Shown here one piece after another: positions 16,623 through 38,248 of a stretch of 64,000 nt of DNA. The DNA comes from Firmicutes bacterium UBA5449 (GTDB lineage: Bacteria; Bacillota; SHA-98; UBA4971): positions 3,497 to 67,496 of the forward strand of contig DIQZ01000051.1 of assembly GCA_002424305.1 (NCBI GenBank), written 5' to 3'. The translations under genes and the position numbers were made by a program. Within the stretch, counting starts at the first letter, position 1. Each line of letters opens with the position of its first letter. Under the pieces are notes generated by a model that saw only the letters and a list, made by a program, of their open reading frames with translations, ran no database searches and was not told the origin of the DNA.

Positions 16623-17078
16623 TCAGCAGTTACGACTTTCAAGACTTCCACCTCCGATGGCAACTGCAAAGGCCATGGCAAGAGCGTCGGTATGGGATAT
16701 GCTGACAAGAACAGCCTTAACACCTCGCCCCTTAGCAAGTTCTTCAGCCCGGCCGAGCAAGCGTACATAAGGTTTTCCGGAAGGTTCGTTACGAATCTCG
16801 ATCTCATTCCACCCAATTCCGGATATTCCCTGCCCTAACGCTTTAGCTACAGCCTCCTTCGCCGCAAATCTACCGGCTAGTTTGTCATAACGTCCTCCCG
16901 TTGCAACATCCATCTCAATATCTGTAAATACCCGCCCATGGAGCCTGTCACCTTTACGCTCCATCAGGTCACGAATTCTACTTACCTCGATAATATCGAC
17001 ACCGATACCAATTACTTGACCCTCACAGTCTGTCAAATCCGGAAATCCCTCCACGAAAGGCCTGTCAGACTGCCCCAT
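16623..17078 (-). CDS. acpS: Holo-[acyl-carrier-protein] synthase
   Basis: It has the GIGVDIIEVSRI motif. Its start overlaps the glmM stop as TAATG. It may carry a short N-terminal extension relative to the canonical AcpS. Confidence 0.8.
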   Translation of the reverse strand: MGQSDRPFVEGFPDLTDCEGQVIGIGVDIIEVSRIRDLMERKGDRLHGRVFTDIEMDVATGGRYDKLAGRFAAKEAVAKALGQGISGIGWNEIEIRNEPSGKPYVRLLGRAEELAKGRGVKAVLVSISHTDALAMAFAVAIGGGSLESRNC

Positions 17079-18454
17079 TAATCCCTACTCAGCTCTTCCC
17101 TTACAACTTTTACGACCTCAGATACAGCAGTTCTTACCATCGCTTCATCCGCACCCTCGCCTAAAACACGAATCAAAGGCTCTGTCCCTGAAGGACGCAC
17201 AAATATCCGCCCCTCTTCGCCTACCAAAGCATTAGCCCGCTCAATAGCTCGACCTACTCTCGAGTTGGAGAAGAAGCTTTCCTTGTTACTGACCTCAACA
17301 TTGACAAGAGTCTGCGGGTAGACTTCCATCCATGAGGCTAGCTCCGATAGTCTCTGACCTGTTGTACGAAGGACCGATAGAAGGGCGAGAGCGGTGATTA
17401 TTCCATCCCCTGTTGTATTACGGTCAAGAAAGATTATGTGTCCTGACTGTTCTCCGCCTAGGACGACACCGAGCTTCCTCATTTCTTCCAGGACATATCT
17501 GTCGCCATTTTGAGTAATAACTACATTACCGCCTTCACGCTTGAAGGTCTTGACCAACCCCAAATTACTGTATACGGTAGCGACTATGGTCTTCTTTGGA
17601 AGCTTCCCCTTTCGCAGAAGATCCAGACCGCAAATAGCCATAATATGGTCACCGTTAACCACATGTCCCCTCTCATCAACTGCTATCAACCTGTCAGCGT
17701 CACCGTCGTGAGCAAGACCCAAATCCGCTCCTGTCCGGACAACCAGCTCACCTATGACTTGAGGATGAATGGATCCGCACTTGAGATTGATATTAGTTCC
17801 GTCAGGCTTATCATTTACCGTTATTACATGAGCTCCAAGATCCTCCAACAGCCTCGGCGTGTATGATGAAGCTGCGCCATTTGCGCAGTCCACAACTACT
17901 TTCAGACCTTCCAGACTAACATTCACTGTACTCTTGGCATACCTCATATATCTCTCCCCGGCATTTTGAAGCCTGCAAATCTTTCCGACTCCGCCTCCTG
18001 CCGGCCTTGGAAAATCGTCATAAACACCAAAACGGACGATTCCTTGCTCATCGAAGGAGATATATTCCTCAATTTCCTGCTCTTCTTCATCTGAAAGCTT
18101 AAACCCGTCACCGGAAACAAACTTAATACCGTTATATTCCATGGGATTATGGGATGCTGAGATAATGATGCCTGCATCCGCCGGGAGATCCCTCACAAGG
18201 AATGCCACCCCGGGGGTGGGAATGACACCGATTGTCACCGCTTGTCCCCCAACTGATGCTATCCCTGAAGCTACCGCAGCTTCCAGCATATCCCCGGAGA
18301 GTCTCGTATCACAACCTACAATAATCGTAGGCTGCCTCCTTAGTCTCCTTGCGATAATTCCGGTTCCAACTCGACCTAATGTAAATGCCAGCTCAGGCGA
18401 GAGAAATGTATTGGCAATCCCTCGTACCCCATCAGTTCCAAACAGTCTCGCCAT
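17078..18454 (-). CDS. glmM: Phosphoglucosamine mutase
   Basis: 458 aa. It has the active-site motif ISASHNPMEYNGIKF, and an N-terminus MARLFGTDGVRG typical of GlmM. Confidence 0.9.
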   Translation of the reverse strand: MARLFGTDGVRGIANTFLSPELAFTLGRVGTGIIARRLRRQPTIIVGCDTRLSGDMLEAAVASGIASVGGQAVTIGVIPTPGVAFLVRDLPADAGIIISASHNPMEYNGIKFVSGDGFKLSDEEEQEIEEYISFDEQGIVRFGVYDDFPRPAGGGVGKICRLQNAGERYMRYAKSTVNVSLEGLKVVVDCANGAASSYTPRLLEDLGAHVITVNDKPDGTNINLKCGSIHPQVIGELVVRTGADLGLAHDGDADRLIAVDERGHVVNGDHIMAICGLDLLRKGKLPKKTIVATVYSNLGLVKTFKREGGNVVITQNGDRYVLEEMRKLGVVLGGEQSGHIIFLDRNTTGDGIITALALLSVLRTTGQRLSELASWMEVYPQTLVNVEVSNKESFFSNSRVGRAIERANALVGEEGRIFVRPSGTEPLIRVLGEGADEAMVRTAVSEVVKVVREELSRD

Positions 18455-18500
18455 ATCCTGTTCCTCCTGATCAATATAACATTCGCATGAAACAATGGAT

Positions 18501-19271
18501 CTATTCAGGTAATGGTGCTACTTTATCAACCTGCTCAATTGACTCTGTAGATGCCTCGTCGGCTATCTCTTCGTCAGATTGCGTGGTTGGTATTTCACTT
18601 ATAGGCACAAATACGCGAACAGTTTGCGGATGAGCACTCAAATCCTGGACAAGGTTGCCTCCGGTGTCTACCGGACTCACCTTTACACTCCTTGAGATAG
18701 CGGACGTAATACCGGATACGTCAATGTAAGCCACGACCGTGTCTATCAACTCCACCTGGCTCCTTGGTCCGATAACGGTAACCAAACCAGGAGATGCTTC
18801 GGGCTGGAACGGAACTTTGCTGTCTCCCGGATATCCTATTATCCCTACCTGGACCGGGAAGTCTACACTGACAATGGCATCCATCTTCACGCCTACCGAC
18901 GCCGGGATAATCTCGACCACTTGGACACCTTCAGGAGCTGATACCTGAACCCGTGCGGCATACTCCCCTTCACCTCGTCCGGCTACAGATACGAATGCTT
19001 GAACTTTCGAGCCATCAAGCGGTTCTACCAGATACTTCGGACCGCGCACCCGAACCTCCACGTCTCTTGGCCTGGTCTCAACTGCGAAGTCGGACGGCGC
19101 GCCTGAGACGTCAACGCCTGCTGTAACAAACCTCTCGGCGGTATCAACCTGGTTTTTGTTGATCTCTGCGCCCGCCACGAACCAAATAACAATCGCCAGA
19201 AGAACGGCTGCTATTTTAAGATATATTTCTCGAGGGACACGGAACGTCACATTACATGCCCCCTTAACCAA
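18501..19271 (-). CDS. cdaR: YbbR-domain protein (CdaR-like regulator of diadenylate cyclase)
   Basis: 256 aa with an N-terminal transmembrane segment and repeated YbbR-like beta-rich segments. It sits in the conserved cdaA-cdaR-glmM position. Confidence 0.65.
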   Translation of the reverse strand: MVKGACNVTFRVPREIYLKIAAVLLAIVIWFVAGAEINKNQVDTAERFVTAGVDVSGAPSDFAVETRPRDVEVRVRGPKYLVEPLDGSKVQAFVSVAGRGEGEYAARVQVSAPEGVQVVEIIPASVGVKMDAIVSVDFPVQVGIIGYPGDSKVPFQPEASPGLVTVIGPRSQVELIDTVVAYIDVSGITSAISRSVKVSPVDTGGNLVQDLSAHPQTVRVFVPISEIPTTQSDEEIADEASTESIEQVDKVAPLPE

Positions 19272-20098
19272 GCCGGAATACCCTGACGGAGCTTACTTGC
19301 GTGCAGTAGTTCTATCAATCTCTCCTTCAGAGCGCTTTCATCAAGATAACGCATTAACTTCCCGTTGCTTGCTATCGAGATGACTCCCGTCTCTTCTGAG
19401 GCCACTATACACACAGCGTCAGATTGCTCCGACAAGCCTAACGCTGCGCGGTGTCTGGTTCCAAGTGTCTTACTGATATTCGGATTCTCAGATAGGGGAA
19501 GGTAGCAGCCTGCAGCCATTATTCTGCTGCCTCGGATTATGGTGGCACCATCATGCAGTGGTGAATTAGGCATGAATATGTTAATAAGGAGCTCTGTTGA
19601 AACAACAGCGTCGATTTTGGTGCCTGTCTCCATCAACTCCGCAATACCGCTGTCACGTTCAACAACAATAAGAGCCCCGATTTTGTCTCTGGCCATCACC
19701 GTTGCAGCTCTGGTAATATCAGAAACCAAAATCATTGTGTCCTCTTTCTCCAGCAGTCCTAATGGACCTGTAAATATGCCACCACGACCTATTTGCTCCA
19801 GAGCTCTTCTGAGTTCAGGCAAGAATACTATGGGCAGACCGACAAAAAGCACAGTAATCGTCTTCTGTAGAAGCCAATTTACTGTGCGCAGTTTAAGCAA
19901 ATCACTGACCATAGTGGCAATAAAGATAACTGCAATGCCCTTGAGAAGTGACACTGCTCTTGTTCCCCTAATGATAACCAGGAGTTTATAGATAACATAA
20001 GCAACAATAAGAATATCCACCATGGAGCGGATTGCATTTGTCGCGTTTACTTTAGCCAAGCTTTCCGTAAGCCTTGCTATGGTTAAATCAAACGGCAT
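19247..20098 (-). CDS. cdaA: Diadenylate cyclase (c-di-AMP synthase), membrane-anchored
   Basis: 283 aa. It has N-terminal transmembrane helices and a DAC domain with DGATIIRG...RHRAALGLSE motifs. Confidence 0.85.
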   Translation of the reverse strand: MPFDLTIARLTESLAKVNATNAIRSMVDILIVAYVIYKLLVIIRGTRAVSLLKGIAVIFIATMVSDLLKLRTVNWLLQKTITVLFVGLPIVFLPELRRALEQIGRGGIFTGPLGLLEKEDTMILVSDITRAATVMARDKIGALIVVERDSGIAELMETGTKIDAVVSTELLINIFMPNSPLHDGATIIRGSRIMAAGCYLPLSENPNISKTLGTRHRAALGLSEQSDAVCIVASEETGVISIASNGKLMRYLDESALKERLIELLHASKLRQGIPAWLRGHVM

Positions 20099-20224
20099 GT
20101 GTCTCCCCCTTGGATCCCTCCGAACGCAGCCTCTACCACAAATATATACTATACATTAATGGAATCCGATGCAAGGCTGTTAACTCATTATTATAGAGAT
20201 AGACGTTAGCTTTGCCGAAAAACC

Positions 20225-21430
20225 CTATGCCCCAAATTTGCCCAGTTTCAAAGCATTTGCAAGGGCTAAGGGTAAAGCACCGAGTGAAGGAAAGACTCCG
20301 AGATTCCCCTGAGCACACATGGACTCGCCAAATCCCGGGGCCCCCTGGGGTCTCACCCACCGGGAATGAATGAGGAATGGTACCGGATGCCAACTGTGGC
20401 CTTTCAGCACCGCCGGAGTAGAATGATCTCCTGTCACAATGAGAACATCAGGCTCCAGATGGAGGATTTCGGGAACATAGCTGTCAAATTCCTCGAGAAC
20501 TCTAACCTTACCTGTGCAGTCACCGTCTTCGCCGCAGCTATCTGTTTCTTTGACGTGAACATAGAGAAAATCATAATCCTCAAAATGAGTCTTGAGCGTG
20601 TTAACTTCGTCTTGGATTGTCAATCCTGTTTCCAGAATTTCCATACCTACAAGGCTGGCAAGGCCACGGTACATAGGATAGCCGGCTATAGCGGCAGGCG
20701 TCAATTTAAATGCCTGAGACATTGTGGGTATCTCAGGAAGGCTGGCAAGACCGCGGAGGAGCACCATATTCGCAGGACGTTCGTTCTTCAATACCTCTCT
20801 CGCCCCGGCAATCCATTTATTTACAATGTCTGCAGTGCGAGACGCTTCAGGGCTGCGTGCAACCGCGTTCTTCGGCCTCTCACCAACATGTTGAGGGTCA
20901 GTGTCCTCTATATCCCCGGACAGACCCTGCCCCCGGAAAACCACGACAAAGCGATGAAACTTCCCCGGCTCAAGAATGACTTCAACACCTTCCATAGTTA
21001 CTGAACGAAGCATCTCAACAAGTTGCCTGTTCTTCTCAGTAGGGATCCTTCCTGCTCGCCTGTCAGTGATAATACCGGATTCATCTACTGTGCAGAAGTT
21101 CCCCCTGGCTGCAACATCAGAAGGTCCCAGTTTCAGGCCGACTCCCAAAGCCTCCAGGATCCCCCTGCCTATCTCATATTCCAGTGGGTCATATCCGAAC
21201 AGAGCCAAATGTGAAGGTCCGCTCCCGGGTGTAATACCAAGAGCTACAGGCTCTACTAAACCACAACTGGAGATAGCTGCTAAGTTATCCAGGTTCGGGG
21301 TATTTGCGGCTTCTAAAGCTGTTCGTCCAATATCAGGATTCGGTAATCCTCCTATACCATCCACTACCACCATAACGATTTTTGTTTCTGTTTTCTGGCT
21401 GAGTTTTTTTACGAGTTCAATATTCACCAC
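20225..21430 (-). CDS. apgM: 2,3-bisphosphoglycerate-independent phosphoglycerate mutase, archaeal-type (ApgM family)
   Basis: 401 aa. Its N-terminus KIVMVVVDGIGGLP... and overall length match the ApgM family rather than GpmI (about 510 aa) or GpmA. Confidence 0.75.
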   Translation of the reverse strand: MVNIELVKKLSQKTETKIVMVVVDGIGGLPNPDIGRTALEAANTPNLDNLAAISSCGLVEPVALGITPGSGPSHLALFGYDPLEYEIGRGILEALGVGLKLGPSDVAARGNFCTVDESGIITDRRAGRIPTEKNRQLVEMLRSVTMEGVEVILEPGKFHRFVVVFRGQGLSGDIEDTDPQHVGERPKNAVARSPEASRTADIVNKWIAGAREVLKNERPANMVLLRGLASLPEIPTMSQAFKLTPAAIAGYPMYRGLASLVGMEILETGLTIQDEVNTLKTHFEDYDFLYVHVKETDSCGEDGDCTGKVRVLEEFDSYVPEILHLEPDVLIVTGDHSTPAVLKGHSWHPVPFLIHSRWVRPQGAPGFGESMCAQGNLGVFPSLGALPLALANALKLGKFGA

Positions 21431-21604: not shown

Positions 21605-23638
21605 GTGGTATGTAAGGTGAGCATCAGCGCCGACGGAAAGCAAAACTACCGTAAAAAGCCGGGTCAAACCCAAAGGTGGCGTTGGGTGGTAGTTCTCCTT
21701 GCTGCCTTCATCCTTTTAGTCGCGCTCATTACAAGCGTCAGACCTATCCCTGCTGTAAGAGGCGGAAGTGTTTTCTACGATATTCACGGCGATGTAATAG
21801 CGTCAACTGATGCCCCCGGCAGACTTGAAGTGTCCCTGTCTGATATGGCCCCTAACCTTCGGTATGCGTTCATCGCTGTGGAGGATTCTCGCTTTTATCG
21901 ACACCCGGGAATCGATCCTGTAGGAATAGCAAGGGCCTTCGCACGTAATGTTCGCGCAAGGCGGATCGTTGAAGGGGGAAGCACAATTACTCAGCAGTTG
22001 GCAAAGAACATGTACCTGCCTGCAAAGCGCACTGTCGGAAGAAAACTGGCTGAGGCAGTTCTCGCCATGTACCTGGAAGTCAAGTTCACCAAGGACGAAA
22101 TCCTTGAGCGCTACCTGAATCTAGTGTATCTGGGACATGGAGCGCATGGTGTGGAAGCCGGTGCAAAGCTCTACTTCGGGAAGCAAACTTCCGGCCTTTC
22201 CCTTGCGGAAGCCTCCATGTTGGCAGGCATCACCAGGGCACCGTTTTACTACTCACCATATAGAGATATGGATGCCGCTGTCAGGCGAAGAAAGACCGTA
22301 CTTGATAGGATGGTCACCGCAGGCTACATTTCTCAAACTGAGGCAGACGCAGCTTCAGAGGAAGCAGTTGAGCTTGTAGGTCTCGGCAGACGGGAAACTA
22401 AGGCTGCCCCGTATTTTATGGATTATGTCACTGACGAAGCTCTAAAACTTTTGGGTGATGAAGGCATGCTGCTCTATTCAGGCAACCTGAAGATTTATAC
22501 CTCCCTGGATCTGACCTTTCAAGAAGCTGCTGAAAAGTCATTCGCAAAAGGACTTGACACCCTTACGCCCCGTGATGGTTCAGAGGATTCCGACTCTAAG
22601 GTAAAACAGCCAATTCAACCACAGGGCGCACTGGTGGCTTTAGATCCCGAAACCGGGCATGTGAAGGCTCTCATCGGCGGAAGAAGCTACTCTGAAACTC
22701 AGTTTAACCGTGCATTGCAAGCCATGCGACAACCAGGCTCTTCCTTCAAACCATTCTTCTACGCAGCAGCGCTGGATAATGGGTTTACCGCTGCGTCTGT
22801 TTTGCCTTGTGAACCTGTGACATTCCGGACGCAGAGGCTCCCTTACACCCCCACTGATTACGGTAAATTCCAGTATCATTTCAGGTTCCTGACCTTAAGA
22901 GAGGCACTGGTCACTTCGTGCAATGTGGTATCTGTACAACTTGCCAACATTATAGGTCCGGAAAAGGGCATAGAGTACGCGAAGCAGCTTGGTATAAGAA
23001 GTCCGCTTGGAGCTAACCTTTCTCTGGTCCTTGGCACCTCAGAAGTTACCCCGTTTGAAATGGCTTTCGCTTTTGCGCCTTTCGCAAATGGAGGCAGACA
23101 GGTTCAGCCAATATTCATAACTTCCATCAAGGATAGGCGCGGAAGAGAATTATATCGTGCTCAGGTAGTGTCGCGACAGGTCCTTGATCCGCGAACGGCA
23201 TTTATTATGACAGATATACTAAAGCAAGTTGTCAGTGAATGGGGCACTGCAGGAGCAATCTCGTCTCAACTTAAACGGCCGGTGGCTGCCAAAACCGGAT
23301 CTACACAGAACTATACTGACGCATGGTTCGTAGGATACACCCCGGACTTGGTATGCTCAGTGTACGTTGGTAACGACGACCCCGGTATCCCTTTAGGCAA
23401 ATCGGGAGGGTCGGCTGCAGGGCCGATATTCGCGAACTTCATTGAAGCCGCGCTTGAGAGCAAACCTGCACTGTCGTTTCAAATACCCGGTGGAATAGTC
23501 CGAACGGAGATATGTCATGAGACAGGATATCTTGCATCGCCTGCCTGCCCCGGCACGCGTTGGGAACTGTTTAAGAGCGGCACTCAGCCAACCTACGAGT
23601 GCCCATGGCACGGTGCATTTCCTGTCTATTCACCCTGA
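21605..23638 (+). CDS. mrcA: Class A penicillin-binding protein (transglycosylase/transpeptidase, PBP1A-like)
   Basis: 677 aa. It has the GT51 motifs EDSRFYRHPGIDP and RRIVEGGSTITQQL, and a transpeptidase SxxK-type domain (QPGSSFKPF, KTGS). Confidence 0.85.
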   Translation: MVCKVSISADGKQNYRKKPGQTQRWRWVVVLLAAFILLVALITSVRPIPAVRGGSVFYDIHGDVIASTDAPGRLEVSLSDMAPNLRYAFIAVEDSRFYRHPGIDPVGIARAFARNVRARRIVEGGSTITQQLAKNMYLPAKRTVGRKLAEAVLAMYLEVKFTKDEILERYLNLVYLGHGAHGVEAGAKLYFGKQTSGLSLAEASMLAGITRAPFYYSPYRDMDAAVRRRKTVLDRMVTAGYISQTEADAASEEAVELVGLGRRETKAAPYFMDYVTDEALKLLGDEGMLLYSGNLKIYTSLDLTFQEAAEKSFAKGLDTLTPRDGSEDSDSKVKQPIQPQGALVALDPETGHVKALIGGRSYSETQFNRALQAMRQPGSSFKPFFYAAALDNGFTAASVLPCEPVTFRTQRLPYTPTDYGKFQYHFRFLTLREALVTSCNVVSVQLANIIGPEKGIEYAKQLGIRSPLGANLSLVLGTSEVTPFEMAFAFAPFANGGRQVQPIFITSIKDRRGRELYRAQVVSRQVLDPRTAFIMTDILKQVVSEWGTAGAISSQLKRPVAAKTGSTQNYTDAWFVGYTPDLVCSVYVGNDDPGIPLGKSGGSAAGPIFANFIEAALESKPALSFQIPGGIVRTEICHETGYLASPACPGTRWELFKSGTQPTYECPWHGAFPVYSP

Positions 23639-23674
23639 CCCCTTCTAATCCGCGCTGATATCCACCCTTGAGCT

Positions 23675-24643
23675 CTATTCGAGGTAGATCTGACGTTCCA
23701 GTCTCTTGTGGTACGAGGTCCATCCGCCTTCAGCTTCACGGCTCTCCTCTACTATTTCAGAAAACTGGGCCACAGACGCGTCTGCATAGTCTGCCAAGTG
23801 AAGAGCCATTGCTTCCAAAGTCTTTGGACGCTTCGGTGAACCCCACTCGAGCTTTCCGTGGTGACTCAGGATCATATGACGCAGTTTGAGTGCTAACGTT
23901 TGAGGGAAGTCTAAAATCCCCTCCATTGCTTGGGCAACCATGCGTTCGCCGATGATGACGTGACCGACAAGTTTGCCTTCATTACTTAAGTCAAAAGGAC
24001 CGTCATAGGTATACTCAACTATCTTGCCGATATCATGAAGAATAGCACCTGTGACCAGAAGCTCACTGTCAATTACCGGGTAGAGTTGAGACATGGTCTC
24101 ACACAGCATTACTACATTGGCAGTATGCTCTATCAGCCCGCCGAGAACAGCGTGATGGATAGATTTTGCAGCCGGAGCTTGCACGAATGCACCGGCAAAC
24201 TCAGGGTTATCAAGGAATTCTAAAACAAGCTGCCGGAGACAGACGTTTGTGAAGGCTTCTGCTCTCCCCTGCAACTCGTAGAGCAATCTTGTGACATCCT
24301 CTTTGGTGCGGGGAAGAAAGAGGGACAAATCATAGTCAGCACGCGTGCACTTATGCAGAGCTTCAACGGTGATTTGAGGTGTTCCCCGGTACTCTGTGAC
24401 ATGACCCTCTACACGCACTACATCTCCGTCTTCAAATATGCTGTACGTGCCGTCGCCGTCATCCCACACAATAGCCTTGATTTCACCTGTCTTATCAAAA
24501 AGCGTAAGTGTCAAGTAACGGCCTGGCTTTGAAGCAAAATCTGAAAGCTGTTTATATTTCGCCATGAAGACGCTTCTTACTGCCTGTCCCACTTGAAGCT
24601 CAACTACTCGCTGCCCTCTGAAGTCCGGATCTCTATCTGACAT
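23675..24643 (-). CDS. yhaM: OB-fold + HD-domain 3'-5' exoribonuclease, YhaM-like
   Basis: It has an OB-fold N-terminus (LQVGQAV...LTLTLFDKTGEIKAIVWDD) and an HD domain (HHAVLGGLIEHT...LHDIGK). The track ORF starts at 24667. The ATG at 24643 (MSDRD...) or the downstream MAKYKQ may be the real start. Confidence 0.65.
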   Translation of the reverse strand: MSDRDPDFRGQRVVELQVGQAVRSVFMAKYKQLSDFASKPGRYLTLTLFDKTGEIKAIVWDDGDGTYSIFEDGDVVRVEGHVTEYRGTPQITVEALHKCTRADYDLSLFLPRTKEDVTRLLYELQGRAEAFTNVCLRQLVLEFLDNPEFAGAFVQAPAAKSIHHAVLGGLIEHTANVVMLCETMSQLYPVIDSELLVTGAILHDIGKIVEYTYDGPFDLSNEGKLVGHVIIGERMVAQAMEGILDFPQTLALKLRHMILSHHGKLEWGSPKRPKTLEAMALHLADYADASVAQFSEIVEESREAEGGWTSYHKRLERQIYLE

Positions 24644-24752
24644 GACTCGTCCAACCCCTAACCACAAAAGATATCAGGATGACATTGGCTGTGCAATTCT
24701 TCCTGTCATTCCTGATTCTACATTACGAAGGGCGAGTCCTTCAAGAGCAGTG

Positions 24753-25571
24753 TCAACTGTTCAAGACAAACCTGTTTATCGCCTCTACAACCCCGTCTCC
24801 GTTTACTCCTTCAGTGACATAATCGGCTGCTTCTTGAACCTTGTTGTTGGCGTTACCTACAGCGACACCAATTCCGGCATAAGATAGCATAGATATGTCA
24901 TTTTCACTGTCACCGATAGCCATAACCTGATCGCGCTGAATATCTAAGTGTTTAGATAACGCAGCAAGAGCTGAACCTTTAGTCACGTTTTCACCTGTAA
25001 ACTCAATATATCCAGGTAACGACCGCGCTACATGTGCTTTTGCTCCGAATTTCTCCTCCAACTCAGGCAAAACCCTTTCAACGATTTTCGGTTCTGCCAT
25101 CATTAGAAGTTTCGTCGGGGGTTTACTGAGAAACCTCAGAAGATTCCCTACAGGTTTTGCTTCAACGTTAACGTGAGCCATATAACGACGGGCTTCCTCA
25201 TTCAAACTTTCAACATAAAGCTCGTCATCGACATAAAGATTCGTGTGATAGCCAAAAGCCTGTGTGTACTCTAATATTTCCTTAGCATCTTCAATCGGAA
25301 TCGGCTTGTGCCAATAAACCTCCTGGGTCTTGGCGGTTTTCACCAAGGCACCGTCATACGTTATGAGAGGAACGTCAAGACCCAGCTCCTCCGCAAAAGG
25401 CACTGCGGCCTGATACATTCGTCCGGTAGCCAAAGTGACTCTGCCCCCCACATCTATGGTGGCATTTATAGCCTGCTTTGTTCTGTTGCCTATTTTAAGA
25501 TCACTACCAATCAAGGTGTGGTCTATATCAATAGCGATAAGTTTGATTTGTCCGCACCCCAAATCTGTCAC
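24753..25571 (-). CDS. Cof-type HAD-IIB phosphatase
   Basis: 272 aa. It has the DIDHTL motif I near the N-terminus and a C-terminal GDSENDISML motif. Confidence 0.75.
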   Translation of the reverse strand: MTDLGCGQIKLIAIDIDHTLIGSDLKIGNRTKQAINATIDVGGRVTLATGRMYQAAVPFAEELGLDVPLITYDGALVKTAKTQEVYWHKPIPIEDAKEILEYTQAFGYHTNLYVDDELYVESLNEEARRYMAHVNVEAKPVGNLLRFLSKPPTKLLMMAEPKIVERVLPELEEKFGAKAHVARSLPGYIEFTGENVTKGSALAALSKHLDIQRDQVMAIGDSENDISMLSYAGIGVAVGNANNKVQEAADYVTEGVNGDGVVEAINRFVLNS

Positions 25572-25930
25572 CGATCTTGCACCACCCAGCTTATGATACT
25601 ACTTCCTATCGAGAGAAGTATGGACGCGAGCACAGCGGGCCAAAACCCGGATATGTAAAACCCCTGCACTATTCCGGATACTATCCACAACATGAAACCG
25701 TTTACTATAAATGTGAAAAGGCCAAGAGTAAGTAATTGTATAGGGAGAGAAAGGACAATTAAAATAGGCCGTATGAGCGCATTCACAATCCCTAATATGA
25801 ATGCTGCCAAGAACGCGGGGACAATTCCGGCAACTTGCACCGCAGGCCCCATAAGGTATGGTATCATTAGAAGGACGACAGCGTTTGCCAACCACCTGAT
25901 GATAAATGTGCGCCTTTGCACTACCGACAC
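25568..25930 (-). CDS. DUF360 / phage-holin-family 4 membrane protein (YvlD-like)
   Basis: 120 aa with three or four transmembrane helices. The pattern matches YvlD/DUF360 proteins. It overlaps the HAD gene start as ATGA. Confidence 0.55.
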   Translation of the reverse strand: MSVVQRRTFIIRWLANAVVLLMIPYLMGPAVQVAGIVPAFLAAFILGIVNALIRPILIVLSLPIQLLTLGLFTFIVNGFMLWIVSGIVQGFYISGFWPAVLASILLSIGSSIISWVVQDR

Positions 25931-26037
25931 CCCCTTAGTTGAAATGTTATCTCTTACACAAATAAGCTAGTCTGAATACATGGAACCAGGACGCCCTTGA
26001 GGAGGGCGCCCCGGTAGATGTTGTCAACTGGGTCAAT

Positions 26038-26460
26038 TCAGACAAAACGCACTGCAATACTTACACCTGATGACCCCTCTGATACCTCCAACAGAGTAAA
26101 CCTTCCATAAGAACGTAGTCCTCTTACCAGCTTAAACGCTACGTCCAGTGCTACTGTGATATCAAAGTCTTCACTGCAGGGAAAGACATCTTTCAAGTTT
26201 CTCATACTACGCTTAACTTTCCTTCTTAATGAAGGAACGAAAAACCCGACGATTCTAACAGCAGAAGCTGTTGATTCCAAAAGATCCTCCAAAATGAACA
26301 ATGGAATCACAATTGGAACCGCAAATCGCATGTGTGGCAACTTCAGCGTGAATATAATGAAAAACGATGGGACAGGCGGAACATGAAATAGCCTTCGCGC
26401 TTGCGTCCCGGATTCTACTCCATTACAAAAATCACGCACGTGAATATTCCCTGTCAGCAT
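26038..26460 (-). CDS. Hypothetical protein
   Basis: 140-aa ORF with no recognisable motif. The real start may be the internal MRFAVPIVIP. Its position inside a co-directional module supports it being genuine coding sequence. Confidence 0.3.
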   Translation of the reverse strand: MLTGNIHVRDFCNGVESGTQARRLFHVPPVPSFFIIFTLKLPHMRFAVPIVIPLFILEDLLESTASAVRIVGFFVPSLRRKVKRSMRNLKDVFPCSEDFDITVALDVAFKLVRGLRSYGRFTLLEVSEGSSGVSIAVRFV

Positions 26461-26474
26461 CGTTACCGCCGCCC

Positions 26475-26876
26475 CTACTCAACGTAGATCTCTACTTTTG
26501 CATCCTCACTGTCTATGTCAACGATTTTGCCCGAACTGGCTTCAGTAATAGTGGAAAGAAGCTCGTCAAGGTCAATATTCTCACTTTCAAGTTCCTTAGA
26601 TACATCTTTGGGAATAAACTTCATTGCGACTTTAGCAAGGGCAAGGGGTAGATTAACATTGACTTTCGTGTTGTCTTCAGTGTCAAACACGCGTATCCGA
26701 AGCATTCTCCCACGATGTCCACCGTGGTGTCCCGGTGCTACTGTTCCACCTTGGCCAGGAGTATCCAAAGCCTCCAGCAGCTTCAGACCTTCATCTATTG
26801 AAACCTTTCCTTCTTGAACAAGGTTCAGGACCTGTCTCTTCTCTTCAGACATTAGGGTTCCCCTCCCATTGAGCAT
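26475..26876 (-). CDS. Small protein with an N-terminal SHOCT-like helix, paralogous to the N-terminus of the adjacent DUF4097 protein
   Basis: 133 aa. Its N-terminus (VLNLVQEGKVSIDEGLKLLEAL) parallels ILKMLEEGKITAEQAASLIEAI of the 415-aa neighbour. The C-terminal half is acidic. Confidence 0.45.
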   Translation of the reverse strand: MLNGRGTLMSEEKRQVLNLVQEGKVSIDEGLKLLEALDTPGQGGTVAPGHHGGHRGRMLRIRVFDTEDNTKVNVNLPLALAKVAMKFIPKDVSKELESENIDLDELLSTITEASSGKIVDIDSEDAKVEIYVE

Positions 26877-26888
26877 ACTTGATTAATA

Positions 26889-28136
26889 CTAACCATACAT
26901 AATACGTACCTGACCGTTAGATGTCCGCGCCTTGATTCTTAACCTGTCACTGTTCTCAGAAAACCCTGATGTCTCAGCAATTACTTCCCTTCGCATAGCA
27001 CCTTCATCCCTTATCTGGTAGACCAGGTCAGGGAGATCAAGCACGATGCGTCCCAGGCTTGTTTTGGCGTCTATATGATAGCCTACCTTTTCAGCGTCTG
27101 CAAGCTGTACCTGTATCGTTCCGTTGGAGGTCATTAGATCATACTCTGATTCCGCTGATATCTCCCGAGATACTACAGTTATCCTACCGTTTGACGTTCT
27201 TGCGTTGAGTCTCTGAGTGACTCCGCTGAAGTCAATTGTACCGTTAGAGCTTTCAAGCTCAGCTATGACTCCGCAAGTATTGTCCAGTTCTATCCGACCG
27301 TTTGATGTTTCTACTTTGATCATTCTGCACTTGAAATCCCCAAGGCTCACCCTACCGTTTTGTGTCTTGAGATCCAGGTCGTATAGAGACTCCTTTGGCA
27401 ATCTCACCTTGAGAGAGGCTCCGGCCAAAGCTTTTCTGTGGACAGCCTTGATCTTAAGTGAATCATCGCTTGAATCATACTGCAAAAGCTCTTCCAGCAT
27501 GCCCTTGGCTGATTCACAATCTGCTCCGGGGTCCTTTATCGTAGCCGTTACATTAATGCGAAAGCCCGGTTCGTCCCACGGTTCAACCGTTATGCTTCCA
27601 TTCAATGTAGAAAGTTCCACGTCAATCTTCTTGTCAGGTTCCCCTGTGAAACTTCCGTCTATCACCTTCTCTACCCTGATGCCGTGGGCGAACATACTCT
27701 GAAGGGGCTCAGCAATCACTTTCGACCAACGCGAGACCAGGGCATCGTCAGTGTCAGATTCATCAGTCCGATATCTGTCTCTTGCTTCTTGCTGAATTCG
27801 ACCGATGGCTTCGTCTGTGCTCTTTATCGCACTTTCCACAGTATCCCGAATCTTCTCAGCCAAGCCTTCAAATGCTGTTGTATCCACTACATCAGCAAGA
27901 TCAGAAAGCCTATCAACCAATCCTTTCACACCTCTTATGTCAACTCTTCCGGGAGGAGACAAGGACTCCGGTTGCACAGGTTCATCGCTGTCACTGTCGG
28001 GAATCAATGAAGATTCCTCCGGAGTGTAGAGCCCGACAGCTTCGTTAATAGCTTCAATTAATGAAGCCGCCTGCTCAGCAGTGATCTTGCCTTCTTCAAG
28101 CATTTTTAAGATCATCATAACTTCTTCACGCATCAT
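26889..28136 (-). CDS. DUF4097 beta-helical (adhesin-like, LiaG/YvlB-like) protein
   Basis: 415 aa. An N-terminal SHOCT-like helix is followed by at least seven [TS][SQ/L]NG-x-[IV] repeats (STLNGSITV, KTQNGRVSL, ETSNGRIEL, ESSNGTIDF, RTSNGRITV, MTSNGTIQV, RTSNGQVRI), which are diagnostic of DUF4097. Confidence 0.65.
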   Translation of the reverse strand: MMREEVMMILKMLEEGKITAEQAASLIEAINEAVGLYTPEESSLIPDSDSDEPVQPESLSPPGRVDIRGVKGLVDRLSDLADVVDTTAFEGLAEKIRDTVESAIKSTDEAIGRIQQEARDRYRTDESDTDDALVSRWSKVIAEPLQSMFAHGIRVEKVIDGSFTGEPDKKIDVELSTLNGSITVEPWDEPGFRINVTATIKDPGADCESAKGMLEELLQYDSSDDSLKIKAVHRKALAGASLKVRLPKESLYDLDLKTQNGRVSLGDFKCRMIKVETSNGRIELDNTCGVIAELESSNGTIDFSGVTQRLNARTSNGRITVVSREISAESEYDLMTSNGTIQVQLADAEKVGYHIDAKTSLGRIVLDLPDLVYQIRDEGAMRREVIAETSGFSENSDRLRIKARTSNGQVRIMYG

Positions 28137-28183
28137 TCACCCTCCTTGTAACTTCTGCTTGATCTATTTTACTTAAAGAAGCG

Positions 28184-28570
28184 TTACATCTTTTGCTTCA
28201 GAAGCTTTACAGCCTCATCTGCACTGAGTTCTCCCTTCGCAAGAGAATCAAGGACTTCTCTCCGCCTACCTGCAATCTCGGCTTCGTCTTCCCCGTCACA
28301 CTCAACCGGAAAACCGAGAGCCTGGATCACTGTGTCCAGCCGACCACGGACCGTAGGATAGGATATTCCAAGCTCTCTCTCAACTTCCTTTATGTTCCCG
28401 CGACATCTAACGAATGTCACCGCAAAATCCCGTTGCTCATCAGTCATCTGACAAAACTTGCATGTTTCAAAGCGCCCGCCGATTGAAGTATCGCACCTGG
28501 GACACGAGAGCTTTGTAACTTCCAGCGATCCACCACAAATAGGACATCTACCAAGAGCTCTGTGCCTCAC
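28184..28570 (-). CDS. DUF2089-type zinc-ribbon plus HTH protein (putative regulator)
   Basis: 128 aa. It has an N-terminal CPICGG...CPRCDT zinc ribbon, then CKFC, an HTH-like segment (ELGISYPTVRGRL), and a C-terminal SHOCT-like LSADEAVKLLKQ. Confidence 0.55.
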   Translation of the reverse strand: MRHRALGRCPICGGSLEVTKLSCPRCDTSIGGRFETCKFCQMTDEQRDFAVTFVRCRGNIKEVERELGISYPTVRGRLDTVIQALGFPVECDGEDEAEIAGRRREVLDSLAKGELSADEAVKLLKQKM

Positions 28571-28729
28571 ATTATCACCTCCCTCAATATCATTGATAGC
28601 AACATTAATAATATAAAGCTATGCGTTAATATTATAAAGCCCCTTATAAAAGAATGTCAATAGATCTTGCATAATTTTGTCATAGACTTTACTTAAAGGT
28701 GAATTATTAGGAGACACTGCTCGAAATCC

Positions 28730-30583
28730 TCAACTGTTGCCTGTTAAGACTTGCTTGACCCGTTCGGCGAGTTTATGGTTTATTCCCGGGACATTCGCGA
28801 TCTCCTCGACTTCTGCACTACGTATGCCTCTCACTGACCCAAACGCCTTAAGGAGGGCCTGAAGTCGTTTCTTGCCGATACCGGGGATTTCTTCAAGGGC
28901 TGAAAGAGTAGATCTTTTCGTCCTGAGCTTCCTGTGGTATGAGATGGCAAATCTATGTGCCTCATCACGAATGTGCCGAAGAAGAAGGAGGGCTTTTGAA
29001 TCCCTTGGAAGAACAATCGGTTGTTCTTGACCTTCAACGAAGATCAATTCATCTGATTCTGCAAGACTTATAACTGGAATGCCTTGGACGTCTAATTCAC
29101 AAAGTGCATTAAGTCCTGCATTGAGCTGACCCTTGCCTCCGTCAATAACAATGAGGTCAGGCAGGTGTCTTTCTTTCTGATCGTGCTCTGGAATCTTCTT
29201 GTACCGCCTGGAAATTATCTCATGCATCATGGCATAGTCGTCTTGGCCTTCCACTGTTCTAATCTTGAAGCGGCGGTACGAAGACTTCGCAGGACGCCCG
29301 CGATCGAATACTACCATCCCGCCAACAGCATCAGTGCCCTGGATAGTGGATATATCAAATGCTTCAATTCTTACGGGAAGTGTAGGAAGATCCAAGGCTT
29401 GCTGCAGCTCAAGCAAGGCAGCGTCTTTAAGTACTGCATCCTGTACGGCCTTGGTTTTCGCATCCTCCAGACTGAGTCTTGCGTTGTCAGTTGTCATATC
29501 AATAAGATGCTTCTTATCGCCGCGCTGAGGTACATGAATGCTAACCTTACGACCTTTTTTCTCCCGCAGCCACATGCTGATGGCCTCTTTATCCTCAGGT
29601 TCGATAGGAAGCAAAACCTCATCCGGAATAAAGGTAGCCTCAGAATAGTATTGCTTTACAAAAGCTGTCAGCATCTCACAGTCAGGCATATCATCAATGT
29701 TAGTTATAAAAAACCGTTCCCGTCCGATGAGTTTTCCGGAACGAATGAAAAACACCTGAGCACATGAGTCAGCCTCATCGCGAAAACAGCCGATTACATC
29801 AATGTCGCTGCGCGACTGCAAGACTATCTTCTGCCGCTCAGTCACACGTTCAATAGCTCTGACAGCATCCCTAATAGACGCAGCCCTCTCGAAATCAAGA
29901 GAGTCTGAGGCTTCTTGCATCTGTGTTTTCATTGCACGTATTACTTGGTCTTGACGCCCTTCCAGAAAGAGCATAATCTGGCTTATCAGCTCCATATAGG
30001 CTTCCTTGGATACCCTTCCCGAGCAGGGAGAAAGGCATTTCCTTATGTGGTAGTTCAAGCATGGCCTGAGCTTCGGCTCCTCGTCCTCAGATATCTTCTT
30101 CGAGCAATTCCGAATAGGGAAAAGACGCCTCAAGAAGCGAAGCGTCTCGCGCATTGCGCCGACATCAGCATATGGTCCGAAGTAACGGCTCCCGTCTTGC
30201 TGAAGCCTTCTGGTCACGATCACCCTGGGAAACTCTTCTTCCAGAGTAATCTTGATAAAGGGGTAGGTCTTGTCATCCCTCAACTGCACGTTGAACCAAG
30301 GACGATGTTTCTTTATCAAATTATTCTCAAGAATTAGTGCTTCGACCTCTGAATCAGTGACAATATACTCGAAATCCGCGATGCGTTCTACAAGCAATTG
30401 AGTCCGCCTGGGTAACCCCGCAGGCGACTGGAAGTAGGAACGAACCCTGTTTTTCAGAGACGAAGCCTTACCCACATATATGACCTGACCGGCAAAATCC
30501 TTCATTACGTAGACTCCGGGTCTGTCAGGGAGCTCTTTGACTCTTTCAACCAGTCGGACTCTCAGGTCGGAACTCATCAACAA
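28730..30583 (-). CDS. uvrC: Excinuclease ABC subunit C
   Basis: 617 aa. It has an N-terminal GIY-YIG domain ([25 protein letters not shown]) and a C-terminal HhH. Its start overlaps the uvrA stop. Confidence 0.9.
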
Positions 30584-35646: not shown

Positions 35647-36924
35647 TCACGATCGAATCTTCCTGATCCATCTAACCAGTGGTCCTTCCAGAGACGCCAT
35701 AGGCACCTTTGCATGTGCATCATCATCAGGCGAAGGCGAAGGAATGAGTCCAATCCTCTCTACTGTGCCGGAGATGGACCGCGAGAAACGCTCTTTGGTA
35801 CCGTCAGTGCGGAATCGTTCAGCCTCAATGTAATACCAAGGAACATACGCCCCAAAAGCCGTCCTGAGCTCTTCAGGACTCCTTATCTGCCTGCCGTTTA
35901 TGGAAATAATTAAGTCCCTGCTCTTGAAGCCGACATTAGCAGCAGGCGAATCAGGTACAACATCAAGCACAACTAAACCTCTGGGATTCGTTGAGAAAAG
36001 CGGTGGTCCCACAATCTCTCCGCGTCTTCCTGATGCTATGACCAGTTCATGCCCTACAGGAGCAAAGATTGCAGCTATCCATTGAATGGGCGGAAACGGA
36101 ATGGAGGCTAACGCCAATCCCAAAAGCACCAGACTAAATACTAAGAGATCCCGCGCTGTACGGGCACTCCTCTCTTCGGGACTTCTCGCAATAGCAAAAT
36201 CCCCATAACCAAGAGCTGCCGGGATCAAGAACATGGCAAATAAAAGCTCGTGGCCTTCCGGCGGCACGATTCCGGGTTTTATAAGAGGCCACCAATCCGG
36301 CATAGTTATTAGGCCGCCTGCTACACTGTGCAATTCACTTGCCGGGGGAGTCACCAACAGCATGCTGATGATAGGCATAGGCCAGAACTTCTGTAATACG
36401 AACCCCCCTACTACCTGTCCTTCCTGCGTTTTCATATAAAGGGGAAGCGCCCCTTGACTGCCTGTAAAGCGTATCAGCAATCCTTCAACCAAGTGAAGCA
36501 CTGCCACAAGAATCATGATGTCTGTAACCCCTACTTCAGGCCAGCCAAATATCAGGCTGGACAAGGAGACCAATCCCCCGGCGTATGAGAAACACAAGAA
36601 TCGTTGATCAATAAGCATAAGAATAACTGCAATCGGAAGGATGAACGAGACTCCTGCCCTGGTTACAGTAACCCCTACGAGTATTAGGATGAGGCTTGCG
36701 AAAAAACCTCCGATAACACCAAGCAGAATAGACGTGAGAACACGAGAAATCAGTGTCTCGCCGGCCTTCCCGTATACGTTAGCCTCAATTCTGGCAGCAC
36801 GGGAATACTGGGCAGCAACAAGCGCTATAATCACCCAAAAGATCGGATGGAGCACTGCTTGTGGAATCAACATTAGGATCGTGACAATTATCTTCCCGAA
36901 AGGAAACATTAAGGCCACTCCCAT
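35647..36924 (-). CDS. Polytopic membrane protein with a C-terminal PDZ domain
   Basis: 425 aa. The N-terminal two-thirds is hydrophobic. The C-terminus has a PDZ-type segment (VLDVVPDSPAANVGFKSRDLIISINGRQIRSPEEL). No HExxH motif was seen. Confidence 0.5.
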   Translation of the reverse strand: MGVALMFPFGKIIVTILMLIPQAVLHPIFWVIIALVAAQYSRAARIEANVYGKAGETLISRVLTSILLGVIGGFFASLILILVGVTVTRAGVSFILPIAVILMLIDQRFLCFSYAGGLVSLSSLIFGWPEVGVTDIMILVAVLHLVEGLLIRFTGSQGALPLYMKTQEGQVVGGFVLQKFWPMPIISMLLVTPPASELHSVAGGLITMPDWWPLIKPGIVPPEGHELLFAMFLIPAALGYGDFAIARSPEERSARTARDLLVFSLVLLGLALASIPFPPIQWIAAIFAPVGHELVIASGRRGEIVGPPLFSTNPRGLVVLDVVPDSPAANVGFKSRDLIISINGRQIRSPEELRTAFGAYVPWYYIEAERFRTDGTKERFSRSISGTVERIGLIPSPSPDDDAHAKVPMASLEGPLVRWIRKIRS

Positions 36925-36953
36925 TTAACGCGCAAACTACTATTCATTATACG

Positions 36954-38207
36954 TCACCCTGCAACTTGGTTTGACTCCTGTTTTTCCAATTGCGCTTTTA
37001 GGATCTCAATAGCGGCCTGGACCTGCGCATCTGTAAGATCATCTTCAGAGTCCTCAGACATCTCAGAGAGTTCCACTACTATATCAGGCTCTATACCCTT
37101 CTTATCAATTAAATGCTCACCTGCAGTAAGATACTTATGAGTCGTTACCGAAATAGCAGAACCGTCAGACAGCGGATAGATGGTTTGAACTGACCCTTTA
37201 CCGAATGTCTTGACCCCTACTATAGTGGCGCGCCCCATATCTTTCAGCGCGCCTGCGACAATTTCCGATGAGCTTGCGCTTGCTTCGTTGACCAGCACGA
37301 CCATGGGGACATCTACCTTCGCTCCGGGGCCTGCATGATAAGTAACCCGACGCCCGCCCTTACCCACCATATGCACGACAGGGGTTCCTGCAGGTAGGAA
37401 CTTAGTTGCTACTTGAACTGCCAGATCCACGGAGCCTCCCGGGTTCAGCCGAAGATCCAGGATAAGACCTTTCATGTTCTGTTCCAGCAGATTCTGAATC
37501 TCTTCCATCATCTCTTCTGCTGTATGCTCACCAAAGAACGAAGCTAAGTGGACATGTCCTATTCCATCGTCCAGCATTTCGCAGCCAATGCGCGGAATTG
37601 CTATAGTATCTCTGACGATACTCACGTCAAAATTGCTTGTCGTCTCATTCTCCGCTCTTTCTATTCCCAAGACAACAGTAGTGCCTTTCTTTCCTTTCAT
37701 CAAAGAGACAGCATACTCCAAAGCCATGTCTTGCGTGGTTCTGCCGTCGATATGCTTAATCCTGTCCAGAGGCAGCAAACCTGCACGCTCCCCAGGGGTA
37801 TCTTTAATGGGAGATACGATAGTCAGTTCCCCGTCAAGGATTCCTACGACTATGCCTATGCCGTCAAAGGAGCCCTTCATATCGTCCATAAAAGTGCGAA
37901 ACTGCGACTTGTCCATAAACTTTGAGTAAGGGTCATCCAAGGCCTTAACCATGTCCTCTACGCGTTGCTCCCGGCTATATGCTTCGAGCAACACAGCGTC
38001 ATCAACAGGGTGCAGGTAAAAGTGCTTCAATATGTAGAGCGCCTCCAGAGCAGCTTCAGCACTTTCTGCCTGAGAACTTTCAGACGTATCAGATGTTTCA
38101 TTTGCAGCTCCTGCAATAGGACTGTAGACATAGCCTCCCCAAAACAGCACTCCAGCAATTGCCATGAGCGCCACAATCAAGCATACCTGACGAAGGCACT
38201 TCCTCAT
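36954..38207 (-). CDS. ctpA: Carboxyl-terminal processing protease (S41 family)
   Basis: 417 aa. It has a signal/transmembrane N-terminus, a PDZ domain (GIVVGILDGELTIVSPIKDTPGERAGL), and an S41 catalytic region (VVLVNEASASSSEIVAGALKD). Confidence 0.85.
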   Translation of the reverse strand: MRKCLRQVCLIVALMAIAGVLFWGGYVYSPIAGAANETSDTSESSQAESAEAALEALYILKHFYLHPVDDAVLLEAYSREQRVEDMVKALDDPYSKFMDKSQFRTFMDDMKGSFDGIGIVVGILDGELTIVSPIKDTPGERAGLLPLDRIKHIDGRTTQDMALEYAVSLMKGKKGTTVVLGIERAENETTSNFDVSIVRDTIAIPRIGCEMLDDGIGHVHLASFFGEHTAEEMMEEIQNLLEQNMKGLILDLRLNPGGSVDLAVQVATKFLPAGTPVVHMVGKGGRRVTYHAGPGAKVDVPMVVLVNEASASSSEIVAGALKDMGRATIVGVKTFGKGSVQTIYPLSDGSAISVTTHKYLTAGEHLIDKKGIEPDIVVELSEMSEDSEDDLTDAQVQAAIEILKAQLEKQESNQVAG

Positions 38208-38248
38208 ATCTTTTCACCAGTTTCTATATTATTTCCCAAGTCTTATCT

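Follow-up and report, generated by a model that had tools for sequence, protein, structure and literature searches.

What system is made up by a DUF2089-family regulator, a membrane protein and the small partners encoded with them in a run of six co-directional genes (28570..24753, minus strand) on contig DIQZ01000051.1 of Firmicutes bacterium UBA5449? Throughout, "the window" is the whole stretch of 64,000 nucleotides that we analyzed. We show that the first five genes (g1 to g5) make up a conserved operon, with a strong sigma-70 promoter in front of it. We lean toward reading this operon as a membrane (cell-envelope) stress module that regulates itself, a variant, under DUF2089 control and without PspC, of the Psp-like Yvl/LiaXYZ systems of Bacillota, and would give that reading slightly better than an even chance. 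An earlier note on this DNA had proposed an envelope module of six genes, and our open reading frame (ORF) calls reproduce all six in the same orientation and at the same coordinates:

28570..28184, minus strand: g1, 128 aa, DUF2089 regulator
28136..26889, minus strand: g2, 415 aa, YvlB/LiaX-type SHOCT-like plus Toastrack protein
26876..26475, minus strand: g3, ORF of 133 aa, small SHOCT-like plus "X" domain protein
26460..26038, minus strand: g4, 140 aa, member of an unnamed ~100-aa family
25930..25568, minus strand: g5, 120 aa, DUF360/Phage_holin_4_2 multi-pass membrane protein, YvlD/LiaZ-like
25571..24753, minus strand: g6, 272 aa, Cof-type HAD-IIB phosphatase

The domain calls of that note (DUF2089, DUF4097, SHOCT-like, DUF360 and Cof HAD) all score above the Pfam gathering scores. 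Its claim of tight spacing or overlap holds for most of the run: the gaps from g1 to g5 measure 47, 12 (36 with a later g3 start), 14 and 107 nt, and g5 and g6 share a 4-nt GTGA overlap; the claim does not hold for the 107-nt g4–g5 gap, which contains a hairpin. Later starts are more likely for two genes, giving 125 aa for g3 (ATG at 26852, following GGGAGGGG) and 117 aa for g5 (GTG at 25921, following AAGGGGG). Public gene calls on identical metagenome contigs have these same lengths.

The operon is conserved well beyond the window's lineage. We fetched 80 DUF2089 loci from one-genome-per-species contigs, all of them closest relatives of the window's DUF2089 (48% identity or more), and searched their ORFs with iterated hidden Markov models (HMMs) seeded on the window proteins. 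The loci span Clostridia, Halanaerobiales, Symbiobacteriaceae, Fermentithermobacillaceae, Limnochordia and others. Downstream sequence of at least 2.5 kb was available for 66 loci, and in these we counted contiguous same-strand genes 3′ of DUF2089. A SHOCT-like partner of the g2 or g3 type lies directly 3′ of DUF2089 in 63/66 loci; overall, a g3-type gene follows in 51, a g5-type gene in 36, a g4-type gene in 33, a g2-type gene in 28 and a g6-type gene in 6 of the 66. The commonest orders are 1-3-4-5 (19 loci), 1-2 (9), 1-2-3 (7) and 1-4-3-5 (6), and the window's 1-2-3-4-5(-6) is a rarer combination. Both g1–g3–g4–g5 and g1–g2 recur, with varying orders and settings, across Clostridia, Halanaerobiales, Symbiobacteriaceae, Limnochordia and Bacilli, and the string of DUF2089, SHOCT-X and a ~95-aa gene is also found on large replicons of Paraclostridium bifermentans and Niallia taxi. 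Of the proposed six-gene module, g1 to g5 are thus borne out as syntenic over the 66 species-level loci, which refutes chance adjacency, and the Cof HAD drops out.

Within the operon, not all members keep the same company. Loci with g4 carry g3 in 37/37 and g5 in 36/37 cases, and loci with g5 carry g3 in 40/41, g4 in 36/41 and a Toastrack gene in 8/41 only. In DUF2089 operons, DUF360 is linked to g3/g4 and not to Toastrack, and the framing of the locus as "DUF4097 plus DUF360" in the earlier note is misleading. Because DUF360 co-occurs with g3/g4 and so rarely with Toastrack, we read the operon as two sub-modules joined under a single regulator: a Toastrack arm (g2) and an arm of g3, g4 and DUF360. 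Both arms are present in the window.

Two DUF2089 operons of different type lie ~36 kb apart on one Halothermothrix contig, JAENYK010000001.1 (loci L034 and L054): a 1-2 operon with a 549-aa Toastrack protein and a 1-3-4-5 operon, each with the ATTAAT boxes described below. This pairing suggests that the two arms can also run as separate, possibly cross-talking units.

The region upstream of g1 (28571..28729) had been called an AT-rich promoter region, and it is one: its A+T content is 69.8%, compared with 51.7% for the window, and it holds a consensus sigma-70 promoter and a set of repeated boxes.

28660..28631, minus strand: sigma-70-type promoter, TTGACA (28660..28655), 18-nt spacer, TATAAT (28636..28631), 12/12 consensus
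28592..28630, minus strand: candidate DUF2089 operator, four ATTAAT-like boxes, ATTAAC (28630..28625), cTTTATattATTAAT (28618..28604) and ATCAAT (28597..28592)
28585..28576, minus strand: strong ribosome-binding site (RBS) of g1, GAGGGAGGTG

Aligning the window with its three nearest relatives (loci L008, L009 and L010) shows that the −35 and −10 elements vary little or not at all, and that the four boxes, which sit just 3′ of the −10 element, have kept their positions while the sequence between them diverged. We then measured hexamer enrichment in the 130 nt upstream of g1 at 79 homologous loci, with Markov-1 shuffles as the reference. The most over-represented hexamers are TTGACA (52/79 loci, z = 23.7), the Shine-Dalgarno sequence and TATTAA/ATTAAT/ATATTA, with 179 occurrences of TATTAA where 56 were expected (z = 16) and a z of 14 for ATTAAT. 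The boxes are paired as ATTAA[TG]-N3-ATTAA[TG], often as two pairs ~21 bp apart. The strict pair TTAA[TG]N3ATTAA occurs at 5.7/kb upstream of g1 and at 0.019/kb in the rest of the loci (~300-fold), and is 12.6-fold more frequent than in A+T-matched windows; it is also present in G+C-rich relatives, including L010, L040 and L052. In the 64-kb window there are four one-mismatch matches to the paired box, three of them at 28604..28639. Because the recognition region of the DUF2089 helix-turn-helix (HTH) is invariant, matching the constancy of the boxes across lineages, ATTAAT-N3-ATTAAT is likely to be the DUF2089 operator. In the window's lineage the boxes lie between the −10 element and the RBS, and for this reason g1 probably represses its own operon there.

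Relative to the −35 element, 37 paired-box sites among the loci lie 20-60 bp upstream and 17 lie 36-100 bp downstream, and two promoter architectures can be distinguished upstream of g1 in L008-L087. The boxes lie downstream of the −10 element in the window's lineage, L058, L077, L045, L078 and others, and upstream of and abutting the −35 element in 1-3-4-5 operons of the Acetobacterium/Lachnospiraceae type. The DUF2089 regulator may repress in one of these promoter settings and activate in the other.

Three parts make up the regulator itself: a zinc ribbon (CPxC..CxxC plus a third CxFC), an HTH with the sequence RGNIKEVERELGISYPTVRGRLD and, at the C-terminus, a probable SHOCT-like helix pair. 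Its zinc ribbon matches PF22747 at 53.0 bits (cut-off 27.6) and its HTH matches PF09862 (DUF2089-HTH) at 83.1 bits (cut-off 33.4). The C-terminus reaches 20.3 bits against PF22746 (E 4e-4), under the cut-off of 27, with the motif GELSADEAVKLLK visible, and PF22746 is annotated in several g1 homologues at 54-61% identity. In an alignment of g1 with 20 homologues (21 sequences), the HTH and the zinc-ribbon cysteines are invariant. The same SHOCT-like two-helix module is found at the N-termini of g2 and g3, and a hydrophobicity scan found no hydrophobic segment in any of these three proteins.

Three CxxC pairs are present in 75/79 DUF2089 homologues (C9/C12, C23/C26 and C37/C40 in g1), and the remaining 4/79 lack the third pair only. 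This third pair, one beyond the need of a four-cysteine zinc ribbon, is a possible second metal site or redox-sensitive pair. On a contig identical to the window, the JGI call (L001, 5690..5953) shortens the DUF2089 gene to 87 aa, and ENA calls give the full 128 aa. By overlooking the GTG start, the JGI call loses the zinc ribbon; this is an annotation artefact, and database searches relying on it would fail to show that domain.

In the Toastrack protein g2, an acidic helical linker connects an N-terminal SHOCT-like domain (PF22746, 42.9 bits, residues 4-32) to a C-terminal Toastrack domain at ~172-415 (PF13349 Toastrack/DUF4097, 38.3 bits, cut-off 22.9), with eight [ST]xNGxI rungs at residues 177-410. 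It has neither a transmembrane (TM) segment nor a signal peptide, and a sequence search against the PDB gave no match. Against the NCBIfam models g2 scores 53.3 bits for LiaX (NF038025, cut-off 350) and 43.9 bits for LiaG (NF049997, cut-off 285); given the distance from the 350-bit cut-off, it is not a LiaX orthologue. By its sequence, g2 shares the YvlB/LiaX architecture, with homology to LiaX and LiaG confined to the Toastrack part.

In L008, a further small ORF (8409..8588, plus strand) sits between the genes for DUF2089 and Toastrack and encodes a free-standing SHOCT-like hairpin (…KRKAILESLANGEISVDKAVALLRQA), and a 51-aa gene called at 6139..6294 in L004-L007 is a small ORF of the same kind. 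The window, where the g1–g2 gap is just 47 nt, has no such ORF. In these nearest relatives it looks like a fourth copy of the interaction module in one operon.

As the earlier note had observed, g3 repeats the N-terminal helix of the DUF4097 protein: a PF22746 helix pair is common to g2 and g3 (37.9 bits in g3). The remaining ~75 residues of g3 fall under no Pfam model. The AlphaFold model of g3 (mean predicted local distance difference test, pLDDT, 74.9) comprises two N-terminal helices, a disordered linker and a C-terminal domain, which we term the X domain, predicted as beta-beta-alpha-alpha-alpha-beta-beta at residues 50-124. A weak alignment of g3 to LiaX model positions 2-103 has an E-value of 0.0055.

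The neighboring g4, described in the earlier note as an ORF without a recognizable family, has indeed no match in Pfam, NCBIfam, PADLOC or PHROGs, and Pfam searches of ten g3/g4 family members from other loci returned nothing but the SHOCT-like domain. It does, however, belong to a conserved family paralogous to the g3 C-terminal domain. A word-indexed search returned eight close homologues (53-99% identity), suggesting an orphan, and this idea was overturned by the HMM searches of DUF2089 loci. Iterated HMMs recover 37 members of ~100 aa in DUF2089 loci, and a search of 1.84 billion proteins with a narrow g4 profile brought up 43 representative clusters. The family core begins near residue 33 of g4, which carries a hydrophobic insertion, a lineage-specific ~30-aa N-terminal extension and one borderline hydrophobic segment. 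When the g4 family was compared with the g3 C-terminal domain in hhalign, the two aligned end to end over 74 columns with 94.7% probability (E 6.3e-8), and control comparisons with the g1, g2 and g5 families gave 1.9% or less. BLASTP of g3 against g4 found nothing (E 20), and the relationship is visible by profile–profile comparison only. Since this match spans both domains and the controls are negative, g4 is best regarded as a SHOCT-less, more hydrophobic remote paralogue of the g3 X domain. This conserved ~100-aa family, for which there is no Pfam or NCBIfam model, is to judge by these profiles newly delineated here. The third gene of the Paraclostridium string matches the g3 profile directly (E 5.5e-7). 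We also considered the X domain as a Toastrack fragment and rejected this, as hhalign showed no relationship to the Toastrack, DUF360 or DUF2089 families. The g3 and g4 genes overlap by ~10 nt in most loci, a form of translational coupling that fits subunits made in fixed proportion, as expected.

The membrane protein g5 matches PF04020 (Phage_holin_4_2/DUF360) at 113.6 bits over profile positions 2-105 of 105, and the hydrophobicity scan found segments consistent with a multi-pass protein of about four hydrophobic segments in ~115 aa. It has no PHROG match and no endolysin-like neighbor. The last gene, g6, scores 221 bits for PF08282 and 196.9 bits for TIGR00099 Cof (cut-off 137), and stays under the cut-offs of all substrate-specific equivalogs. 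We considered this HAD as a system member and rejected it, as it is adjacent in 6/66 loci only; it is a lineage-specific passenger, peripheral to the module.

Components of this kind have been studied in two sets of Bacillota operons. In Enterococcus, liaXYZ is under LiaR control, and both liaXYZ and lmo2487-2484 of Listeria are induced by, and protective against, membrane-active peptides (PMC6936494, PMC11601895, PMC10269926, PMC12791056), including induction of lmo2487-2484 by garvicin KS (PMC12791056). The C-terminal (Toastrack) domain of LiaX inhibits LiaFSR signaling and its N-terminal domain binds daptomycin and LL-37 (PMC6936494). LiaY (PspC) and LiaZ (DUF360-type, holin-like) take part in phospholipid redistribution (PMC6936494, PMC11601895, PMC10269926), and YvlB interacts with PspA, LiaH and Yvl membrane proteins (PMC9239133). 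The "phage holin family" proteins YvlD, LiaZ and Lmo2484 belong to the same Pfam family as g5 (PMC12791056, PMC10269926).

Like liaXYZ of Enterococcus faecalis/faecium, the window's operon is a small operon of envelope-associated proteins of unknown biochemistry. Its g2 has the LiaX layout, with a helical SHOCT-like N-terminus, a Toastrack C-terminus and neither signal peptide nor TM segment, and its g5 is, like LiaZ, a ~118-aa "phage holin family" membrane protein. Unlike liaXYZ, it has no PspC-domain LiaY, it contains the additional genes g3 and g4, and it is apparently controlled by its in-operon DUF2089 regulator and ATTAAT boxes rather than by LiaFSR/LiaR. With yvlABCD of Bacillus subtilis and lmo2487-2484 of Listeria monocytogenes it shares the presence of a YvlB-type SHOCT-like plus Toastrack protein and a YvlD-type DUF360 protein in one operon on a Bacillota chromosome; it differs in having no YvlA, no PspC (YvlC) and a sigma-70 rather than a sigma-W promoter. 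PspC has no match in the six proteins at E <= 0.01 or in the flanking genes examined, there is no two-component system among the flanking genes examined (LiaR boxes were not searched for), and the sigma-W consensus TGAAAC-N16-CGTA has 0 matches in the 64-kb window. Two components are shared, and because PspC, PspA, a two-component system and a sigma-W promoter are missing, the operon is not a member of the yvlABCD/liaXYZ group. The resemblance to yvlABCD and liaG neighborhoods claimed in the earlier note extends to the sub-threshold LiaX/LiaG matches of g2 and to the family of g5, and stops at PspC and the sigma-W promoter. The envelope-stress reading of that note is in the right neighborhood. 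To the classical Psp system (PspF–PspA–PspBC) the likeness would be one of concept only, in that regulator activity might be set by contacts with membrane-associated integrity sensors; the window's operon has no PspA/ESCRT-III, PspF AAA+ activator, sigma-54 or PspB/C.

The closest precedent is computational. The retrieved passages of Ravi et al. (mSystems 2024; PMC11237479) describe DUF2089 as a zinc ribbon, an HTH and a SHOCT-like domain, class YvlB as SHOCT-like plus Toastrack, report DUF2089 neighborhoods with Toastrack and list a Bacillus megaterium pair of DUF2089 followed by "SHOCT-like+X". They propose that DUF2089/Toastrack contexts carry membrane signals to transcription in a lia-operon-like manner. 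The locus, which the earlier note took to be uncharacterized, had in these respects (DUF2089 architecture, Toastrack and "SHOCT-like+X" neighborhoods) already been covered there. Their pair of DUF2089 and a small SHOCT-like plus unknown-domain protein is matched by g1 and g3, as seen in 51/66 loci, Paraclostridium and Niallia. Their main four-gene context comprises, in the same passages, a sigma factor, a zf-HC2/HEAT anti-sigma receptor, a membrane-anchored Toastrack protein and DUF2089; the window's operon, unlike it, encodes neither a sigma nor an anti-sigma factor, and its Toastrack protein, g2, is not membrane-anchored. The retrieved passages mention no g4 family, X-domain paralogy, g3–g4–DUF360 triad or ATTAAT operator, and neither "holin" nor "DUF360" occurs in the main text of that paper. 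The module does not make a new category; it is a variant within a kind of system already known from computational work, and nothing about it contradicts current expectations. What we add are the identity and paralogy of the g4 family, the two-arm organization of DUF2089 operons, the linkage of DUF360 to g3/g4, the exclusion of the HAD and the candidate operator.

We propose the following working model for an autoregulated membrane-stress module. At rest, g1 would bind the ATTAAT boxes between the −10 element and the RBS and repress its own operon. SHOCT-like helix pairs would link g1 with g2 or g3, or with the inner membrane face, and g3 and g4 would pair through their paralogous X domains and dock as a pair on the DUF360 membrane protein g5. 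Membrane perturbation would alter this complex and, by capture or release of the regulator, induce the operon. By analogy with the LiaX C-terminal domain, g2 could serve as a sub-membrane scaffold and negative-feedback element, and g5 would act as the membrane effector. The envelope-rich core setting of the operon (ftsEX, an M23 peptidase, Ctp, PBP1A and cdaA-ybbR-glmM) also counts in favor of the membrane-stress reading. More tentatively, and with a probability that we put clearly below even, DUF2089 operons could represent a distinct one-component signaling scheme in Bacillota: the zinc-ribbon/HTH regulator would be switched by SHOCT-like helix-pair exchange with the Toastrack scaffold and a g3-X/g4 heterodimer on DUF360, with ATTAAT-N3-ATTAAT as the readout, X as a new fold family and DUF360 instead of PspC as the membrane-sensing element.

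Several points weigh against the membrane-stress module as we have drawn it. PspC and PspA, hallmark Psp components, are absent from the operon, and the scores of g2 fall far short of the equivalog cut-offs for LiaX and LiaG. In the window itself the central pair of boxes, cTTTATattATTAAT, is degenerate, with one mismatch, and repression cannot be generalized across lineages because the boxes lie 5′ of the −35 element in many of them. The census statistics hold for this DUF2089 subfamily only, since the loci are its closest relatives. No structural match hints at an activity for the X domain, and the AlphaFold model of g4, built from an 8-sequence alignment, is unusable (pLDDT 52). Moreover, the contacts between proteins in the model, its inducing signal and its DNA binding are all inferred.

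A narrower possibility, which we think unlikely, is dedicated immunity or tolerance to cationic membrane-active peptides, with g3 as a free-standing peptide-binding sentinel resembling the LiaX N-terminus and g5 altering the membrane. DUF2089 genes do occur in leaderless-bacteriocin clusters, such as BawC beside a 3-TM protein and an ABC exporter (PMC10707071), and the peptide binding of the LiaX N-terminal domain (PMC6936494) together with the weak g3–LiaX match would fit such a role. That match, however, falls mostly within the SHOCT-like region, neither g2 nor g3 carries a secretion signal, and no bacteriocin, ABC exporter or immunity-type gene lies in or beside the operon. Peptide immunity would in any case be a narrower form of the membrane-stress explanation, not a contradiction of it. 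The name of PF04020, given for a mycobacteriophage holin, invites a different reading, in which a DUF360 toxin is held in check by g3/g4 and DUF2089 switches a holin/antiholin-like lysis or abortive-infection cassette on upon infection; the abnormal clumping phenotype on liaZ over-expression, and the suggestion that LiaY may restrain LiaZ (PMC11601895), agree with it. We consider it very improbable, and the phage-defense-like unit entertained in the earlier note found no backing: g1 to g5 have no match in PADLOC-DB 2.0 or PHROGs, and the sole PADLOC match, of the peripheral HAD g6 to AbiEi (E 0.0038, 15 bits), is weak and regarded as chance. DUF2089 matches none of 50,697 phage records and only 8 of 72,556 plasmids, and the locus, with no endolysin, integrase or compositional anomaly, has a core position among housekeeping genes, downstream of uvrC in many lineages (20/66).

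That same uvrC, directly upstream on the same strand, and the three CxxC pairs with one above the zinc-ribbon need are what speak for linked genes whose function lies elsewhere, be it in a redox- or metal-sensing regulator with six conserved cysteines or in a DNA-damage role inherited with uvrABC. We rate this as quite unlikely: the four homologues without the third CxxC pair keep the rest, the operon has its own consensus promoter, uvrC is absent beside most loci, and all partners with any known relative point to the membrane. Finally, a chance adjacency of unrelated small genes fits g6 alone, and whole-region synteny in the closest metagenome-assembled genomes (MAGs) is uninformative by itself; for g1 to g5 the recurrence in varied orders and settings across lineages refutes it, leaving it a next to negligible probability.

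In enterococci and Listeria, Toastrack (YvlB/LiaX) and DUF360 (YvlD/LiaZ) proteins have a central part in the tolerance of daptomycin and bacteriocins, and this operon family is a simpler, self-contained version, with regulator, partners and membrane protein in one transcription unit. As a widespread Bacillota system, it touches the LiaX/YvlB problem. It yields a concrete operator prediction (ATTAAT-N3-ATTAAT) and a concrete hypothesis on interactions, SHOCT-like with SHOCT-like and X with X′; these are testable in cultivable relatives including Acetobacterium woodii, Ruminiclostridium papyrosolvens, Paraclostridium bifermentans and Priestia megaterium. Moreover, "hypothetical" proteins of ~100 aa outside Pfam and NCBIfam models gain a family identity.

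The genomic setting is the core, envelope-rich chromosome of an uncultured Bacillota bacterium, whose closest species representatives are anaerobic-digester MAGs. On the upstream side lie uvrB-uvrA-uvrC together with ftsE, ftsX, an M23/PcsB-like peptidase, a CtpB-like S41 protease and a PDZ protein. Downstream of the module are yhaM, a class A penicillin-binding protein (PBP; 21605..23638, plus strand), apgM, cdaA, ybbR and glmM, with yhaM and the PBP gene, on the opposite strand, as its immediate neighbors. The module is thereby flanked by two conserved envelope/cell-division blocks, at 35647..41004 on the ftsE–ftsX side and at 17078..21430 on the apgM–cdaA–ybbR–glmM side.

In the window, uvrC (28730..30583) lies directly 5′ of the operon on the same strand, as it does in 20/66 DUF2089 loci from many separate Bacillota lineages, and no terminator-like site separates it from the operon promoter. 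This adjacency could reflect ancestral synteny or read-through coupling.

A terminator scan found no convincing terminator within or after the operon, and Rfam gave nothing over 23400..29000 at E <= 1. Sequence inspection identified one structured element:

25986..26014, minus strand: G+C-rich hairpin, CCGGGGCGCCCT-cctca-AGGGCGTCCTGG, within the 107-nt g4–g5 gap

This hairpin has no T-run, and is for that reason not a canonical terminator, and it has no Rfam match. It forms part of the minimum free energy fold and has counterparts in L008 (~10714..10740) and L009 (~10461..10487). The gap that holds it is unusually long in the window, the g4–g5 gap measuring 10-30 nt in most other lineages. By way of processing, stability or partial termination, the hairpin could set the ratio of g3/g4 to g5.

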